64,000 bases of DNA, from positions 1 to 64,000 of the forward strand of contig JAZDHK010000029.1 in the NCBI GenBank assembly GCA_043806035.1. The letters run 5' to 3'. Positions 8,601 through 16,116 of the stretch are shown one piece after another (within the stretch, counting starts at the first letter, position 1; each line of letters starts with the position of its first letter). This DNA comes from an archaeon (GTDB lineage Archaea; Nanobdellota; Nanobdellia; Woesearchaeales; UBA9642). Below the pieces are notes generated by a model. That model searched no databases. It saw nothing but the letters and a program-made list of their open reading frames with translations, and was not told the origin of the DNA. The position numbers were made by a program, and so were the translations under genes.

Positions 8601-9218
8601 TCAGGGTATTTGCAGTCTTTTTTTTAACGACACCATGACTTCTGCTCTCGGCAGGTTCTTGTCGAAGAAGAACGTCTGCAGTCCTGCTTTTTTTGCATTG
8701 TCAATATCCATCTCTTCACTATCCCCGATATGCAGCATTTCCCCTGGTTGTACGTGCAGCATGCGTGCAATCTTAAGATAGAGCTCGACTGGTTTTCCGG
8801 CAATGCCAAAATCATCAATGGAAGAATACACTGCACTGAAGTATTTCCTGTTCTCTCCAAGTTCTCTGTTGATGAACTCTTTTTCCGTCGAGGAGGTCAC
8901 GATCACTGTCGTTTTTCCCTGCAATTCTTTCAGGAGCGCGATGCTGTCGGGAAAGAACAGCGGTGTATGCTTCATTCTCTTCTCGATGCCGCTCAGCGAT
9001 TCTTGCTGCAAGGCGGACAGCCAATAGTTCAAGGAATAATAGCGATAATCATATACTCCCCACTCCGCAAATTGTTTTTTGAGAACATCTTTTGCCTCTT
9101 CGCAGGTCATACCGTGCACGACTGCATACAGTATGGGGAGCGTCTCCTGCCAGAACTCATCAGAGAATGCGGAATCGGACAGTGTTCCCTGCAAGTCAAA
9201 ACTTATGACCTTTATCAT
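8601..9218 (-). CDS. HAD-superfamily hydrolase/phosphatase
   Basis: FDLQGTL motif I (DxQ variant), GKP and HIGDSEEMDIDNAKKAG motif IV. Confidence 0.9.
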   Translation of the reverse strand: MIKVISFDLQGTLSDSAFSDEFWQETLPILYAVVHGMTCEEAKDVLKKQFAEWGVYDYRYYSLNYWLSALQQESLSGIEKRMKHTPLFFPDSIALLKELQGKTTVIVTSSTEKEFINRELGENRKYFSAVYSSIDDFGIAGKPVELYLKIARMLHVQPGEMLHIGDSEEMDIDNAKKAGLQTFFFDKNLPRAEVMVSLKKRLQIP

Positions 9219-9757
9219 CGTATTTTCTTCTCTTTGATGTGCACGAGCGAGAATACATCGTACTTGCCTAGGTGCTCACGGCCTCTCAAGTAGTCGAGCT
9301 CAATGACGAACGCGCACCCAGCAACGCGAGCTCCCGTCTCCTCGACAAGCGCAATTGCCGCCTTTGTCGCCCCAGGCCCTGCCAGGATATCATAGACGAT
9401 CAGCACCTCGTCTCCTTTGTTGAACGCATCCTTCTTTAGGGCATATTCGCCTGTGCCGTACTCCTTCTCGAACGTTCTGGAAAGAACATCCCTGGGAATG
9501 AGATTTGGTTTTCTGATTAGGCACAGAGGCACGTGCATGGCGAACGACAATGCAGCACCGATAGTGAACCCTTTCGCTTCTATCGCGGCAATCTTCGTAA
9601 TCGCTTTGCCCGCATAGTGGTTTTGTATGTCCGCTATTGCCTGCTTGTACACTGTAGGATGTTCGAGCAATGGCGTGAAATCCCAAAAAATGACATCTTT
9701 CTTAGGAAATCCATCGAATGACGCAATATATTTTTTGTATGGGTTCATGTCACTCAT
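9215..9757 (-). CDS. Adenine phosphoribosyltransferase-like protein with an atypical PRPP loop
   Basis: FPKKDVIFWDFTPLL, IEAKGF, IRKP, EKEYG and FVIELDYLRGR match APRT. The PRPP loop reads YDILAGPGAT rather than DDLLATGGT. Confidence 0.85.
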   Translation of the reverse strand: MSDMNPYKKYIASFDGFPKKDVIFWDFTPLLEHPTVYKQAIADIQNHYAGKAITKIAAIEAKGFTIGAALSFAMHVPLCLIRKPNLIPRDVLSRTFEKEYGTGEYALKKDAFNKGDEVLIVYDILAGPGATKAAIALVEETGARVAGCAFVIELDYLRGREHLGKYDVFSLVHIKEKKIR

Positions 9758-10370
9758 CCTCTACCAATATTGCTCGTGCAGGTGCAGCATCAATGCCCGT
9801 CACTTTAATAGGCAAGCAGATGAACTGGTACTCTTTCGCTTCTGCCTCGCGCAATCGCAGATTATCTATCAGGATGATGTCTTTCGCCATGAACAGCCGA
9901 TGGATGTCTGTGCTCCCCGCACGCTCAAATGACTGATAATCATACCCCAAGACAGTAATTCCTTTACTGATCAGATAGTTCGCCCCGCCAGGACTTAATG
10001 CTACATGATGAGGATTGTACTTCTCTAGAGGATCATACGAATTTTTTGTTTTCAGCAAGAGCATTGATTGTGAGATGGTCTGCTTGCTCAATTCCTTCTC
10101 CGTGATGTACTCATCGACGTTAGTCAGGTCGAGCACCTGGCATGTCCCCATCAGTCGGTCGAGGGGGACTTGATCTGACGTCCACTTATCAGTGAACAAA
10201 TAGTACGGCGCATCGATGTGCGTTCCTGCATGCGCCCCAAACTCCAGCCAGGTGAAATTACATGGCGCCTGTGGCATTCTCGCAAGGGGTTTGAGTTTCG
10301 GCTGTGCATCGTCAACCCACACAATCGTCTTTTCATTCAGCTCCATGGAAATATCGATAATGCGGTTCAT
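9750..10370 (-). CDS. Cyclase family metal-dependent hydrolase (KynB/arylformamidase-like)
   Basis: HAGTHIDAP metal motif and C-terminal LPIKVTGIDAAPARA. The start is reassigned to ATG 10370 (ATGA overlap, GGAGG RBS). Confidence 0.9.
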   Translation of the reverse strand: MNRIIDISMELNEKTIVWVDDAQPKLKPLARMPQAPCNFTWLEFGAHAGTHIDAPYYLFTDKWTSDQVPLDRLMGTCQVLDLTNVDEYITEKELSKQTISQSMLLLKTKNSYDPLEKYNPHHVALSPGGANYLISKGITVLGYDYQSFERAGSTDIHRLFMAKDIILIDNLRLREAEAKEYQFICLPIKVTGIDAAPARAILVEDE

Positions 10371-11695
10371 GCGTTTCCCTCCACTATTTTTTCTATTGCA
10401 GCGAGCCACTGTTCTCGCCGAGCCATGCACGCTTGTGCTGCCATGCACAGCAATGCAGGCCTGCACGCAACATACTGTTCTTGAAGACAATCCCATTCAG
10501 GAATGCGCATCATCTTTTCCGTTGTCTTCTCCAATGCATTCCAGAAATCAAAATGATTCTCTCGCGGCATCGGCGACCAGACAGGACCGTACATCTCTGC
10601 CAATTGGAACAAGAATTCGTGGTAGCGTTTCTTGCCGTGCGTCTTCTTTTCGAACAGGGTCAGCAAATGACGAACGACATGGTCTTCCTGAAGATACGCT
10701 CGCACCTCTTTGCTGGTCGTGTTGTCCTGCAACGCCTCGGTCAGCTTGTTCTCATGTATTGCTGTTCGGAGTGTTCGTATGAACTGCTCCGCATCGCCAG
10801 CCGCCTCTCCCGCAAATGCAGCGTTCACGGATTCAAGAGGTACACGCACGTATTCTTCATCGTCAATAAAATAATAATGCCCTATCAGGTCAACCCTATT
10901 CTCAAAAGGATACGCGCCCGAATCAAAACATGCGCGCTCAGTATCTAGGTCATGGAGTGCGAACGCTATTTTTTCGTATTGCTTTGTGTCATGCACGTAG
11001 ATGAAGTACGTCCCGATCGTATACGTGGGATTTTTTGCAAAAAAGGAAACGTACGTCATTGCGCTGTGCAGCGTTGTCCCTGAATTGATGTACTCATCGA
11101 AGTACAGGAATGGTCTGTTGAATATCTTGCTTATGGTCGTCCCTTCAAGAATGGTTGCGATCAGGGAACGAACGGCATGATGTGCGTGCCTATCTCCGTT
11201 CGTGAACAGTTCGTGCACCGTGAATTCTTCTTTGGAAAAGGGAGGAATGTGCGTGCAGGCCATGTGCAACAGTTCGGAACGCGTCTTGTTCTCTAACTGC
11301 TCATGATTTCGCCATTCCTCCCGGTCACTACACTGTTCTAGTATGCGCCGAATGTGCGCTGCAGTCATCCGCTCGTTTCGTTCAGCAGTGGTCAAGTAAT
11401 ACATGAGCAACGGGTACATGCTTTGCATCGGTTCTCTGGGAACTTTGAGCGGAAACCAGGCAATATCCAATCCTCGTTGCTGTGCCAATAGCTTACAGAT
11501 GTGAATGAGCGGGCTTGCCCCGGTCTCGGACACGACGACGTGCCTGAATCCAGAAGCGACAATTGCATCAACGCATCTCCTCGCCAAGGTAACCTGGCCG
11601 TGTAGTGAGAGAAAATGGAATTTGGCATGGTGAATGGGGTGTACGAACTGACTGATGTTATCCACCTTTCCAAAAATTGTTTCTTGCTGCTTCAT
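10367..11695 (-). CDS. Uncharacterised protein with a phosphoribosyltransferase-like motif
   Basis: FLYFDEYINSGTT resembles the type I PRTase PRPP-binding loop; the rest is unrecognised. Coupled to both neighbours. Confidence 0.6.
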   Translation of the reverse strand: MKQQETIFGKVDNISQFVHPIHHAKFHFLSLHGQVTLARRCVDAIVASGFRHVVVSETGASPLIHICKLLAQQRGLDIAWFPLKVPREPMQSMYPLLMYYLTTAERNERMTAAHIRRILEQCSDREEWRNHEQLENKTRSELLHMACTHIPPFSKEEFTVHELFTNGDRHAHHAVRSLIATILEGTTISKIFNRPFLYFDEYINSGTTLHSAMTYVSFFAKNPTYTIGTYFIYVHDTKQYEKIAFALHDLDTERACFDSGAYPFENRVDLIGHYYFIDDEEYVRVPLESVNAAFAGEAAGDAEQFIRTLRTAIHENKLTEALQDNTTSKEVRAYLQEDHVVRHLLTLFEKKTHGKKRYHEFLFQLAEMYGPVWSPMPRENHFDFWNALEKTTEKMMRIPEWDCLQEQYVACRPALLCMAAQACMARREQWLAAIEKIVEGNA

Positions 11696-15353: not shown

Positions 15354-15367
15354 GCTGTTCTCTCCAC

Positions 15368-15463
15368 TTCACGTATTTTTCACGTGAATAAAGGGTGGAA
15401 AGTAGCTGTTATTTATATAGTTTACGTTTTTTTAACGTTAAGATGACGTTTTGAATACGTAAA
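15368..15463. promoter_or_regulatory. Three 21-bp NrtR-type operators (ACGT-N7-ACGT)
   Basis: TTCACGT-ATTTTTC-ACGTGAA (15368-15388), TTTACGT-TTTTTTA-ACGTTAA (15421-15441) and ATGACGT-TTTGAAT-ACGTAAA (15443-15463). All fit the NrtR GT-N7-AC core. Confidence 0.85.
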
Positions 15464-15498
15464 ATTTATAAATTCTGGGGCAGTCTGAACTGGCAATC

Positions 15499-16116
15499 AT
15501 GGAAAAGTATGAGAAAGCAAGAATTGCCGTCGATGCCGTGCTCTTCACCATACGTGATAAATCGCTCAACGTACTTCTCCACACGAGAGAAAAAGAGCCA
15601 TTCAAGAACAAGAAAGAACTTCCTGGAGGATTATTGCAGGACAATGAGACTGCCGAGCACACCCTAAAAAGAAAACTGAACAACATCATGGGAAAGGAAG
15701 ACATATTCCTCCAGCAATTCTTCACCTTCACCGAACCCAAACGAGATCCGAGAGAACGGACGGTCTCCATAGGATTCATCGCACTCGTTCCTGCCGAAAG
15801 CACGACGCATGTGCAGCACTGGTTCGACTGCAAGCACTTGCCTGCACTCGCATTTGACCACAAACGCATCATTGAGTGCGCACAAGCCTATCTTAAGGAG
15901 AACATAAGCGCGCTGGTCGTACGACAGTTCATGCCCGATGTATTCCCCTTGAACAAGTTGCAAGACGTGTATGAGCTCATCGAAGAAAAAACATATGATA
16001 ACAGAAACTTCAGAAAAAAAATGATCATCTCGGGCATGGTCAAAGAAACGGCAGAGATGGAAACAAACGTCTCACACCGGCCTGCGAAGCTCTACGCTTT
16101 CACGAGCACCCGTTGA
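15499..16116 (+). CDS. nrtR: NrtR-family transcriptional regulator (Nudix + winged HTH)
   Basis: Degenerate Nudix box (LPGG...TLKRKLNNIMG), RDPR, LAFDH and a C-terminal wHTH with DNRNFRKK and HRPAKLY. Confidence 0.92.
   Translation: MEKYEKARIAVDAVLFTIRDKSLNVLLHTREKEPFKNKKELPGGLLQDNETAEHTLKRKLNNIMGKEDIFLQQFFTFTEPKRDPRERTVSIGFIALVPAESTTHVQHWFDCKHLPALAFDHKRIIECAQAYLKENISALVVRQFMPDVFPLNKLQDVYELIEEKTYDNRNFRKKMIISGMVKETAEMETNVSHRPAKLYAFTSTR

Follow-up and report, generated by a model that had tools for sequence, protein, structure and literature searches.

In Chlamydia, GTP is turned into dihydroneopterin monophosphate by the joint action of RibA and TrpF, as described in the excerpts of Adams et al. 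2014 (PMC4161248) on which we draw. Excerpts of a study of azacitidine biosynthesis (PMC13749301) describe a pathway that runs from GTP to an aminopyrimidine base and on through a phosphoribosyltransferase (PRTase) and a HAD phosphatase, a strategy termed 'base-first-then-glycosylation' by its authors; ToyD of toyocamycin/sangivamycin and PtnA of 8-azaguanine are also named there. According to the portions of two further papers used here (PMC13055916, PMC12648386), HisG-like PRTases and a PriA-like isomerase have been recruited in the adechlorin, pentostatin and pyrazomycin clusters. We compared with these systems a gene cluster of a woesearchaeal archaeon, which lies in a stretch of 64,000 nucleotides (contig JAZDHK010000029.1, positions 1 to 64,000; the window, hereafter). 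The cluster consists of nine overlapping genes facing a gene for an NrtR-type regulator, and it recurs in ordered form in 64 loci. Our preferred, though tentative, reading is that this horizontally shared operon encodes one dedicated small-molecule pathway, leading from a purine nucleotide and phosphoribosyl pyrophosphate (PRPP) to a nucleoside- or pterin-like compound.

In the list of open reading frames (ORFs), the nine minus-strand genes fill positions 8601-15353 and the plus-strand regulator gene faces them divergently. The features are as follows, with the sources of each assignment in parentheses (GCH II stands for GTP cyclohydrolase II).

15499-16116, plus strand: NrtR-type regulator with a degenerate Nudix box and a C-terminal winged helix (Pfam, NCBIfam, sequence)
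15371-15385, 15424-15438, 15435-15449 and 15446-15460, divergent promoter region: candidate operator boxes ACGT-N7-ACGT (motif scan)
14907-15353, minus strand: Nudix hydrolase whose Nudix box is intact; the operon begins with this gene (Pfam)
13783-14910, minus strand: GTP-cyclohydrolase-II-like zinc enzyme, here GCH-II-like (Pfam, hhalign, structure model)
12950-13786, minus strand: viperin-like radical SAM enzyme, an optional module (PADLOC, NCBIfam, PDB sequence search)
12351-12953, minus strand: P-loop nucleotide kinase, weakly dTMP-kinase-like or TMK-like (Pfam, NCBIfam, PADLOC)
11692-12357, minus strand: TrpF-like phosphoribosyl (Amadori) isomerase, a core gene (Pfam, NCBIfam)
10367-11695, minus strand: orphan, putative type I phosphoribosyltransferase 'PRT2', the signature gene (motif, structure model)
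9750-10370, minus strand: cyclase-family (KynB-like) metal amidohydrolase, a core gene (Pfam, NCBIfam)
9215-9757, minus strand: APRT-like phosphoribosyltransferase paralogue, a core gene (NCBIfam)
8601-9218, minus strand: HAD-IA phosphatase, nucleotidase-like, last gene of the operon (Pfam, NCBIfam)

Neighbouring genes overlap at all eight junctions of the operon, by 4, 4, 4, 7, 4, 4, 8 and 4 nt. These values take 10370 as the start of the cyclase gene. Its longest ORF begins at 10496, and the start was set at M43 because homologues are 204-225 aa long and an ATGA overlap results, giving a protein of 206 aa. A preliminary description of this DNA had reported nine co-directional, overlapping genes opposite an NrtR gene; its coordinates proved exact, and its family labels were correct at the superfamily level in Pfam and NCBIfam. 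The altered signature motifs that it mentioned are borne out as well, several of the enzymes being divergent paralogues that score under curated family cut-offs.

To define the conserved unit, we compared the ORFs of 64 loci with the window's ten proteins. The first collection (L002-L026, 25 loci) was found with a profile of the GCH-II-like enzyme, one genome per species, and the second (L033-L071, 39 loci) with a profile of PRT2 in JGI metagenomes. At least five locus pairs are duplicated between the collections (L005/L042, L006/L036, L017/L053, L018/L050 and L044/L045), leaving at most 59 independent loci. Frequencies were taken from the 32 spanning loci, which extend at least 4.5 kb upstream and at least 2.5 kb downstream of PRT2 and include two of the duplicate pairs. 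Nearly throughout the 64 loci, the genes share one strand pattern and one order: NrtR, (Nudix), GCH-II-like, (radical SAM), (kinase), TrpF-like, (aminotransferase), PRT2, cyclase, APRT-like, HAD. Genes for the TrpF-like protein, PRT2, the cyclase and the APRT-like protein were each present in 32 of 32 spanning loci, and those for the HAD and GCH-II-like proteins in 30 each. A kinase of any type occurred in 25, the radical SAM enzyme in 22 (the other 10 keep the core without it), a Nudix gene of any type in 17 and a HemL-like class III aminotransferase in 6. Among the 18 spanning loci ascertained with PRT2, 16 carry the GCH-II-like gene. The conserved unit is thus composed of the TrpF-like, PRT2, cyclase, APRT-like and HAD genes and usually the GCH-II-like gene, while the radical SAM, kinase and Nudix genes are optional; it is smaller than the nine genes originally taken as a unit.

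Several of the proteins are fused to one another in other organisms, which links adjacent steps of the proposed pathway. The Nudix and GCH-II-like proteins form a single chain in 7 of the 120 relatives listed, the GCH-II-like and radical SAM proteins in P0007 and L008, the GCH-II-like protein and a SLOG/LOG-like domain in P0059, and PRT2 and the cyclase in P0122 and L062. No longer fusion protein containing the TrpF-like enzyme was found, the fusion search being weak evidence in this respect. A full-text literature search, which did not cover the supplementary gene-cluster tables of the pVip, azacitidine and PriA papers, returned no description of this gene combination. A few copies are interrupted: the radical SAM gene of L014 (11115-11970) lies in two ORFs, and L040 has its GCH-II-like gene, and L051 its TrpF-like gene, likewise in two pieces, possibly through frameshifts or as decaying copies.

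Since every one of the genes comes from a common superfamily, they might be ordinary ribA, trpF, apt, tmk and kynB genes that lie side by side by chance. We give this explanation next to no credence. It is refuted by the ordered cluster in 64 loci across two domains, and it is also opposed by the overlap at every junction, by the scores of most of the proteins below family cut-offs and by the pathway partners not found in the genome. The preliminary description would have been refuted by genes that do not co-occur in other genomes; they do co-occur, and the recurrence of the ordered cluster, as opposed to a chance run of housekeeping genes, agrees with the single dedicated pathway of nucleotide, PRPP and formamide enzymes that it had proposed.

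The search for partner genes covered the host genome, which is 93.7% complete; absences from it and from other metagenome-assembled genomes (MAGs) are to be read as 'not found', not as proof of absence. In the host, no match over cut-off was obtained for FolE, FolE2, DHPS, PTPS, lumazine synthase, TrpC, HisG, HisI or IGPD. The TrpC (IGPS) search reached 21 bits, under its cut-off of 27, and was also negative in 3 of 4 other cluster genomes tested. The riboflavin and tryptophan partner genes noted earlier as missing from the window are thus not found in the whole host genome either, and the same holds for the folate genes. The host has a separate APRT on contig C14, 34% identical to the APRT-like protein of the operon. 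Together with the partner genes not found, this second APRT indicates that the operon genes are not housekeeping copies.

Four familiar purposes were rejected on these grounds. Folate was dismissed as the operon's purpose in the host because FolE, FolE2, DHPS and PTPS were not found, and a tryptophan route because no TrpC passed the cut-off. A histidine route was set aside because the host yielded neither HisG nor HisI and just 2 of 25 cluster genomes have IGPD. A riboflavin route was likewise rejected, there being no lumazine synthase and a sole canonical RibA, which is on a 4.2-kb virus-like contig. On that contig (C2; L028, 1-3385), the canonical GTP cyclohydrolase II gene (223 bits) sits between genes for a Zot-like assembly ATPase and a VRR-NUC nuclease, and the contig looks like a fragment of a virus or mobile element carrying ribA.

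The hosts of the cluster are Woesearchaeota-type archaea (DPANN), bacteria of the candidate phyla radiation (CPR; Sungbacteria, Parcubacteria and Saccharibacteria), Obscuribacterales (Melainabacteria), gut Clostridia and one Muribaculaceae MAG. In Coxiellaceae and Methanobrevibacter, the GCH-II-like gene stands with some of its partners only or apart from the core genes. Within these lineages the cluster is rare: a single genome among 41 from the host's family and order has the GCH-II-like gene, as does a single one among 81 from the order of G062, an Obscuribacterales MAG, and PRT2 was found in 2 of 401 high-quality genomes of the host phylum. The GCH-II-like, TrpF-like, cyclase and APRT-like proteins of the archaeal copy are nevertheless 51-71% identical overall to bacterial proteins (62-68% for the cyclase, 56-71% for the TrpF-like and 52-63% for the GCH-II-like protein). 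In a tree of TrpF-like and cyclase sequences, the archaeal rows interleave with those of CPR bacteria and Melainabacteria and the Muribaculaceae row is nested in Clostridia, with modest support (7 of 34 inner branches starred). Rarity within lineages, identity across domains and the interleaved tree are, taken together, the signature of an accessory operon spread by horizontal gene transfer. Searches of the viral contigs of IMG/VR and of phage and plasmid records gave no match to the cluster. L057, which groups with Saccharibacteria and Patescibacteria rows in the tree, carries a heliorhodopsin gene (13767-14537, 296 bits) directly downstream of the cluster.

Next, we considered the enzymes that would begin the pathway. 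The Nudix hydrolase looks active, with an intact box and a Pfam NUDIX score of 59.2 bits, and its best NCBIfam matches are weak ones to ADP-ribose pyrophosphatase domains. The GCH-II-like protein scores 25.6 bits against Pfam PF00925 (cut-off 23.3), with residues 264-318 (54 residues) alone aligned and no single stretch passing. Aligned by hhalign with the canonical RibA of the same genome, its family gave a probability of 94.7%. In this alignment C150, C161 and C163, invariant in 18 sequences, line up with the zinc-binding cysteine triad of canonical RibA (C-x10-C-x-C), and an LTNNP(K/L)K strand is also matched. The AlphaFold model (pLDDT 78) has a sole significant PDB match in Foldseek, the GTP cyclohydrolase II structure 4rl4 (E=7.5e-6, target TM-score 0.62). 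The protein has an N-terminal extension of about 130 aa and belongs to a tightly conserved family: relatives are 52-100% identical among the 120 matches listed, and the 18-sequence alignment holds about 100 invariant columns. These features suggest a divergent, conserved homologue of GTP cyclohydrolase II with its zinc site, for which ring opening of GTP is proposed. No NCBIfam model represents this family or that of PRT2.

The partners of the GCH-II-like gene outside the full cluster bear on the fate of its product. PRT2, cyclase, APRT-like and HAD genes do not adjoin it in L007, L020 and L022, all three ascertained with the GCH-II-like profile. It is paired with just a RibD_C reductase gene in L020, and with TrpF-like and aminotransferase genes in L022, which suggests that its product can be handled by ribosylamine-processing enzymes without PRTases. 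The Methanobrevibacter genome has ArfA and two RibD_C genes, so that the GCH-II-like/RibD_C pair there is extra. In L007, from a Clostridiales MAG, NrtR-like and GCH-II-like genes are the sole members of the cluster present (9224-12871), and they are followed by genes for a 227-aa uncharacterised protein and a Maf-like nucleotide pyrophosphatase.

The TrpF-like protein matches Pfam PRAI over its full length (68.2 bits, profile positions 2-191 of 193) and misses every NCBIfam TrpF cut-off (at least 172), with a best score of 132.3 against a cut-off of 215. Formation of a ribosylamine by the GCH-II-like enzyme and its rearrangement by the TrpF-like enzyme is a suggestive assignment only, drawn from the GTP cyclohydrolase II homology with its zinc site, the partners in L020 and L022 and the Chlamydia precedent. 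As in the Chlamydia bypass of FolE and FolQ, so far as the excerpts of PMC4161248 describe it, an enzyme of GTP cyclohydrolase II type would here work with an isomerase of TrpF type in genomes that lack FolE. In contrast to that system as excerpted, the two proteins here are dedicated divergent paralogues encoded side by side in an operon, the GCH-II-like one having the N-terminal extension and none of the RibA arginines. At least four further genes accompany them (two for PRTases, one for a hydrolase and one for a phosphatase), and most hosts are without DHPS.

None of the 24 other cluster genomes yielded FolE, and FolE2 turned up in a single one of 25; both figures agree with a split GTP cyclohydrolase I. 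Of the 81 genomes in the order of G062, 62 have FolE; G062, the sole carrier of the cluster there, is without it. These observations raise the question of whether the operon serves a primary cofactor route, providing FolE-independent dihydroneopterin for folate, or another pterin or deazapurine cofactor, after loss of GTP cyclohydrolase I. Beyond the precedent seen in the excerpts of PMC4161248, such a role gains from the three genomes with strong DHPS matches (G062, G061 and G051), in none of which FolE or FolE2 was found, and from the presence of TGT in 21 of 25 cluster genomes though PTPS/QueD is in 3-4 of 25. Against it, TGT is near-universal anyway (14 of 14 controls), so that the queuosine/archaeosine idea gains nothing from its count; the QueC match of the host is marginal (22.8 bits, inside a 692-aa ORF). 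DHPS was found neither in 18 of 24 other genomes nor in the host, and folate thus cannot be the general purpose. The cluster's rarity in its phylum and among the host's relatives does not fit a primary cofactor, and the bypass needs the GCH-II-like and TrpF-like enzymes alone, not two PRTases and a hydrolase. We consider a primary cofactor route distinctly unlikely.

PRT2, the signature gene product, has 442 aa and matched no Pfam or NCBIfam family over cut-off; there was no Pribosyltran match, and PRTase-CE scored 16.5 against 27. Read against the PRPP-loop consensus, it shows a conserved PRPP-loop-like motif, FDEYINSGTT. Its structure model (pLDDT 91) consists of a probable type I PRT core, large helical insertions and a C-terminal helical domain. 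The core resembles HGPRT and PyrR weakly (Foldseek probability 0.97-0.99, E 0.009 or worse, target TM-scores 0.41-0.57). The family is small and sharply bounded, with 114 representatives among 1.84 billion proteins, and a search of the ESM Atlas with PRT2 led to unnamed clusters only. The adjoining cyclase protein is a member of the cyclase family by its score against Pfam Cyclase (PF04199; 73.2, cut-off 23.1), and its KynB identity is less firm, the arylformamidase model TIGR03035 giving 110.1, under 223. The APRT-like protein passes NF002636 (157.2, cut-off 125) and fails NF002633 (159.4 versus 224), TIGR01090 (154.6 versus 185.85) and the other APRT equivalogs listed. For the HAD protein (Pfam Hydrolase, 54.9 bits), the best NCBIfam matches, weak ones, are GMP/IMP and pyrimidine nucleotidases.

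On these assignments the proposed pathway would run in five steps. The Nudix enzyme would take pyrophosphate off GTP or a close purine nucleoside triphosphate. The GCH-II-like enzyme would then open the imidazole ring to give a 5-amino- or 5-formamido-6-ribosylaminopyrimidine nucleotide, whose ribosylamine the TrpF-like enzyme would subject to an Amadori rearrangement, yielding either a pterin resembling dihydroneopterin phosphate or a ketosamine that releases its base. PRT2 and the cyclase, which are assigned to consecutive steps because they are fused in some organisms, would together with the APRT-like enzyme re-attach the remodelled base on PRPP and trim it. Finally, the HAD phosphatase would strip the 5'-phosphate and release the nucleoside-like or pterin-like product. 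The radical SAM enzyme, the kinase and, in some loci, the HemL-like aminotransferase may be optional modules that tailor the product or feed the pathway. The pterin-like or modified-nucleoside product suggested in the preliminary description fits the best biochemical precedents, those of Chlamydia and azacitidine, and is a proposal by analogy. Like the azacitidine-type pathways in the excerpts of PMC13749301, the present one would combine ring opening of GTP by a cyclohydrolase with a PRPP-dependent PRTase and a HAD phosphatase, all in one cluster. Those pathways, as excerpted, are Streptomyces systems that use enzymes of GTP cyclohydrolase I type and oxygen- or TPP-dependent remodelling (TPP, thiamine pyrophosphate). 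The present cluster instead has GCH-II-like and TrpF-like enzymes, two PRTases and a cyclase-family hydrolase, and is found in anaerobe-rich lineages of small genome size.

A number of results weigh against a pathway that starts from GTP in this way. The GCH-II-like protein scores far under the cut-offs of the NCBIfam RibA models (30.4 versus 148 and 23.8 versus 205.85), and a profile of its family matched no PDB sequence at E up to 0.01. The RibA motif RQEGRGIG corresponds to TQNGMGSG, so that the arginines, which in RibA have a role in pyrophosphate release, are lost. A canonical RibA is encoded alongside the GCH-II-like gene in G050, G051, G062 and the host (contig C2), and ArfA in G059, implying that the substrate of the GCH-II-like enzyme may not be GTP. 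Three loci (L039, L052 and L035) keep the core without an adjoining GCH-II-like gene and have a second APRT-like gene and a PRPP synthetase gene instead, which indicates that ring opening by the GCH-II-like enzyme is not indispensable; L035 also carries a CYTH protein, and its contig begins at the PRPP synthetase gene, its upstream part being out of view. The proposed model gives two PRTases and the HemL-like aminotransferase of 6 loci no specific role. A consumer of a pterin is not evident, as DHPS was not found in the host or in all but 6 of the 24 remaining cluster genomes. Finally, G062 and G051 are also without HisG, HisI and IGPD, so that the absence of FolE may simply reflect reduced genomes.

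The two last-named genomes, G062 (L023) and G051 (L012), are Obscuribacterales MAGs of 7-9 Mb in which DHPS and canonical RibA are present, G062 also having TrpC; gene gaps of this kind are odd for such large genomes. The canonical RibA of G050 lies at the very start of its contig.

The variants without the GCH-II-like gene are explained by a different scheme, which follows the logic of histidine and coformycin biosynthesis. In this scheme the APRT-like enzyme and the kinase would supply an adenine or other purine nucleotide, PRT2 would phosphoribosylate one of its ring nitrogens, and the Nudix enzyme would take the role of HisE. The cyclase, the GCH-II-like enzyme or both would open the six-membered ring as HisI does, the TrpF-like enzyme would stand for HisA, and the HAD phosphatase would dephosphorylate a ring-remodelled nucleoside of pentostatin/coformycin type or a nucleotide resembling AICAR (5-aminoimidazole-4-carboxamide ribonucleotide). 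The operon has an analogue for each early histidine step, and L035, L039 and L052 keep APRT-like, PRPP synthetase, kinase, TrpF-like, PRT2 and cyclase genes. Consecutive histidine enzymes are often fused, as PRT2 and the cyclase are here, and the Nudix-cyclohydrolase fusions mirror HisIE. The recruitment of HisG-like PRTases and a PriA-like isomerase in nucleoside antibiotic clusters, described in the excerpts of PMC13055916 and PMC12648386, argues in the same direction. The pentostatin, coformycin and adechlorin clusters, so far as these excerpts go, resemble the present one in joining a PRTase and a phosphoribosyl isomerase from amino-acid-pathway families for the remodelling of a purine nucleotide, which here is proposed. 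The present cluster differs in having a putative type I PRTase, no SAICAR-synthetase-like or short-chain dehydrogenase/reductase (SDR) gene, and a GCH-II-like enzyme and cyclase-family hydrolase instead.

These differences count against the histidine-like scheme. The predicted fold of PRT2 looks like that of a type I PRT resembling HGPRT and PyrR, from which the HisG fold differs. Coformycin-type clusters contain SAICAR-synthetase-like and reductase/SDR genes, neither of which is in the operon. A homologue of the C8-attacking GTP cyclohydrolase II, present in nearly all spanning loci, would be left without a role, and supply of histidine itself is made impossible by the scarcity of IGPD among the cluster genomes. 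We therefore regard the scheme as possible but unlikely. Among the Clostridia (G053-G056; L014-L017), HisG is present, together with HisI in G053, and no IGPD was found; the G053 genes for HisG and HisI are about 25 kb from the cluster on one contig.

A further possibility is that the operon breaks compounds down, in a catabolic, salvage or clean-up pathway. PRPP would serve to activate a base, whose ring would then be opened and deformylated and its fragments reused, comparable to the recycling of uracil in the yeast URC route, or damaged purines (formamidopyrimidine or 8-oxo forms) would be disposed of. The hosts are mostly reduced, salvage-dependent organisms, PRPP synthetase is encoded in 5 of the 64 loci and an SsuA/NMT1-type binding protein in 8, the single fusion of the GCH-II-like protein to a LOG-like domain suggests base release, and the regulator is of a Nudix type. 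A general need of this kind is hard to reconcile with the rarity of the cluster in its lineages. The operon ends in a phosphatase and not in an entry into central metabolism, radical SAM and aminotransferase enzymes are unusual for disposal routes, and no transporter is consistently linked to the cluster, none being adjacent in the window. We judge breakdown or salvage improbable, no likelier than cofactor supply.

The radical SAM enzyme leads to one more possibility. It matches the pVip models of PADLOC well (E=6.6e-32), has the cluster motif CNMNCPFC (CX3CX2C), and finds viperins as its top PDB sequence matches (6q2p, 51.5 bits; 5vsl, 50.3 bits), slightly above BlsE (47) and MoaA (41). The adjoining kinase gene encodes a protein with weak scores against Pfam Thymidylate_kin (23.4, cut-off 27) and TIGR00041 (40.3, cut-off 83.25) and a weak match to PADLOC VakA (E=2.6e-5). 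The operon could accordingly represent antiviral defence of pVip type, in which the viperin-like enzyme, fed by the kinase, makes a chain-terminating 3'-deoxy-3',4'-didehydro (ddh) nucleotide while the other genes supply or detoxify; patchy distribution and spread by gene transfer would suit such a function. However, the radical SAM enzyme scores under the NCBIfam viperin cut-off (viperin_w_prok, NF038283; 107.9 versus 180), with the N-terminal core alone aligned (residues 6-159 of 278), and reaches 50.4, under 450, against TIGR04278. Viperins have N-x-H residues just ahead of the radical SAM cluster motif; these are missing here, T-F-E standing in their place. The enzyme is also dispensable, as nearly a third of the spanning loci keep the core without it.

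To examine the neighbourhood for defence genes, we scanned 122 flanking proteins from 23 loci with PADLOC. They come from 128 proteins chosen out of 277; of the six left out, four were short ORFs nested in long genes of L008 and L009, and two were fragments of L049 at contig ends. No single PADLOC family had over 2 matches among the 122. Among the operon proteins, the radical SAM enzyme alone matches well; the kinase, HAD, Nudix and NrtR proteins match weakly and generically, and four of the other eight proteins have no match. The neighbours of the cluster are hence not enriched in defence genes, which answers the test for proximity to defence islands suggested in the preliminary description. 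The antiviral or host-directed role considered there also loses ground, given an optional radical SAM gene and the lack of any match in the viral, phage and plasmid collections searched. Compared with prokaryotic viperins and their nucleotide kinase (PADLOC pVip, VakA), the present pair is alike in that the radical SAM enzyme is closest to viperins and has a kinase gene beside it. It is unlike them in falling below the curated viperin cut-off, in being an optional part of a larger biosynthetic operon, in being sometimes fused to the cyclohydrolase and in having no defence-island context. We read the radical SAM enzyme as a tailoring enzyme of a metabolic operon, with defence as a minor rival that we hold to be quite improbable.

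We further examined how the operon may be controlled. The regulator passes Pfam NrtR_WHD (68.7 bits, cut-off 27) and NUDIX (29.9, cut-off 21.1) and is a divergent member of its family, scoring 106.9 against the NCBIfam NtrR equivalog, under the cut-off of 400. Its Nudix box reads R-K-L-N-N-I at the positions where an active Nudix enzyme shows R-E-U-x-E-E. It thus combines what marks an NrtR protein: a Nudix domain with a degenerate box, an NrtR winged helix, and boxes near the regulated genes. The motif ACGT-N7-ACGT occurs five times in the window, against a chance expectation of 0.68, with four of the copies at 15371-15460; in 100 shuffles the maximum was 3, and none attained 5. In the whole genome (1,502,269 bp) there are 39 matches, which cluster at the promoter region of the operon only. 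The set is made up of three non-overlapping boxes, as the 'three operators' of the preliminary description had it, and a fourth, overlapping box that it did not include. The ACGT cores are 11 bp apart (15371/15382; 15424/15435/15446/15457) and would share one helix face, and L005 and L011 repeat this 11-bp phasing.

NrtR homologues adjoin the cluster in 21 of 32 spanning loci. Boxes were found in the intergenic region between NrtR and the operon in 4 of 23 loci scanned (L004, L005, L008 and L011), all four of archaeal type with a divergent NrtR gene. The host has a second NrtR paralogue on contig C26, 39% identical to that of the operon, and no ACGT-N7-ACGT cluster was found on C26 around it. 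Because this second copy exists and the boxes cluster at the operon alone, the regulator of the operon is taken to be a dedicated paralogue; the C26 neighbourhood may be the genome's ordinary NAD regulon. On C26 (about 6779-7399 and 13258-14674), the second NrtR gene lies near another Nudix gene and the 692-aa ORF with a marginal PP-loop (QueC-family) match. The NrtR family is known for regulons of NAD metabolism. Like those regulons (Pfam PF21906), the present system has a divergently transcribed gene whose product joins an inactive Nudix domain to a winged helix, with palindromic boxes in the common promoter region; unlike them, it has no recognisable NAD gene, a second paralogue and boxes clustered at one locus. 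No NAD gene was recognised in the operon with Pfam or NCBIfam. The operon's own NrtR-type regulator, claimed earlier, is thus upheld by the divergent gene with the box cluster between. Induction by NAD+ breakdown is not, its sole basis being the name of the regulator's family, of which the operon's protein is a second, divergent paralogue. Probably, the NrtR paralogue acts at the boxes to repress transcription in both directions and is freed by a nucleotide ligand. In a search for riboswitches, Rfam at gathering threshold gave tRNAs only in 16 loci, and in L012 and L023 the region upstream of the cluster gave no match even at E up to 1.

In the window, the locus is flanked on one side by genes for GatD and GatE (5448-8584, plus strand) and on the other by a gene for an M17 aminopeptidase (16128-17534, minus strand). 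The GC content of the operon, 0.48-0.49, is unremarkable beside about 0.50 for the whole window. Among the data sets listed as containing this DNA, none was of RNA, and the one strongly matching DNA set is probably the sample of origin. Beyond the aminopeptidase gene, a 360-aa ORF without a Pfam family (17531-18613, minus strand) has 4-nt overlaps with that gene and with a gene for an LPG_synthase_TM-family membrane protein.

A more specific form of the proposed pathway, which we hold a little more tentatively still, is that the operon makes an undescribed metabolite derived from GTP and PRPP, be it a nucleoside antimetabolite, a signal or a pterin-type cofactor, exchanged between ultra-small symbionts (DPANN and CPR) and gut anaerobes. 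It would do so through three enzyme families without a described member: a split 'GTP cyclohydrolase I' formed by the GCH-II-like and TrpF-like enzymes, an orphan PRTase that acts in concert with a cyclase-family hydrolase, and a biosynthetic relative of viperin. If this is true, organisms otherwise known for almost no biosynthesis would possess a compact, portable pathway of 6-10 genes for a purine-derived compound. The pathway would be a second case, this time a dedicated one, in which enzymes of RibA/TrpF type replace GTP cyclohydrolase I, it would give the orphan PRT2 family a function, and it would embed a viperin-like enzyme in a metabolic operon. Its product would be a candidate metabolite with which episymbionts and gut anaerobes could nourish or poison their partners or send them signals.

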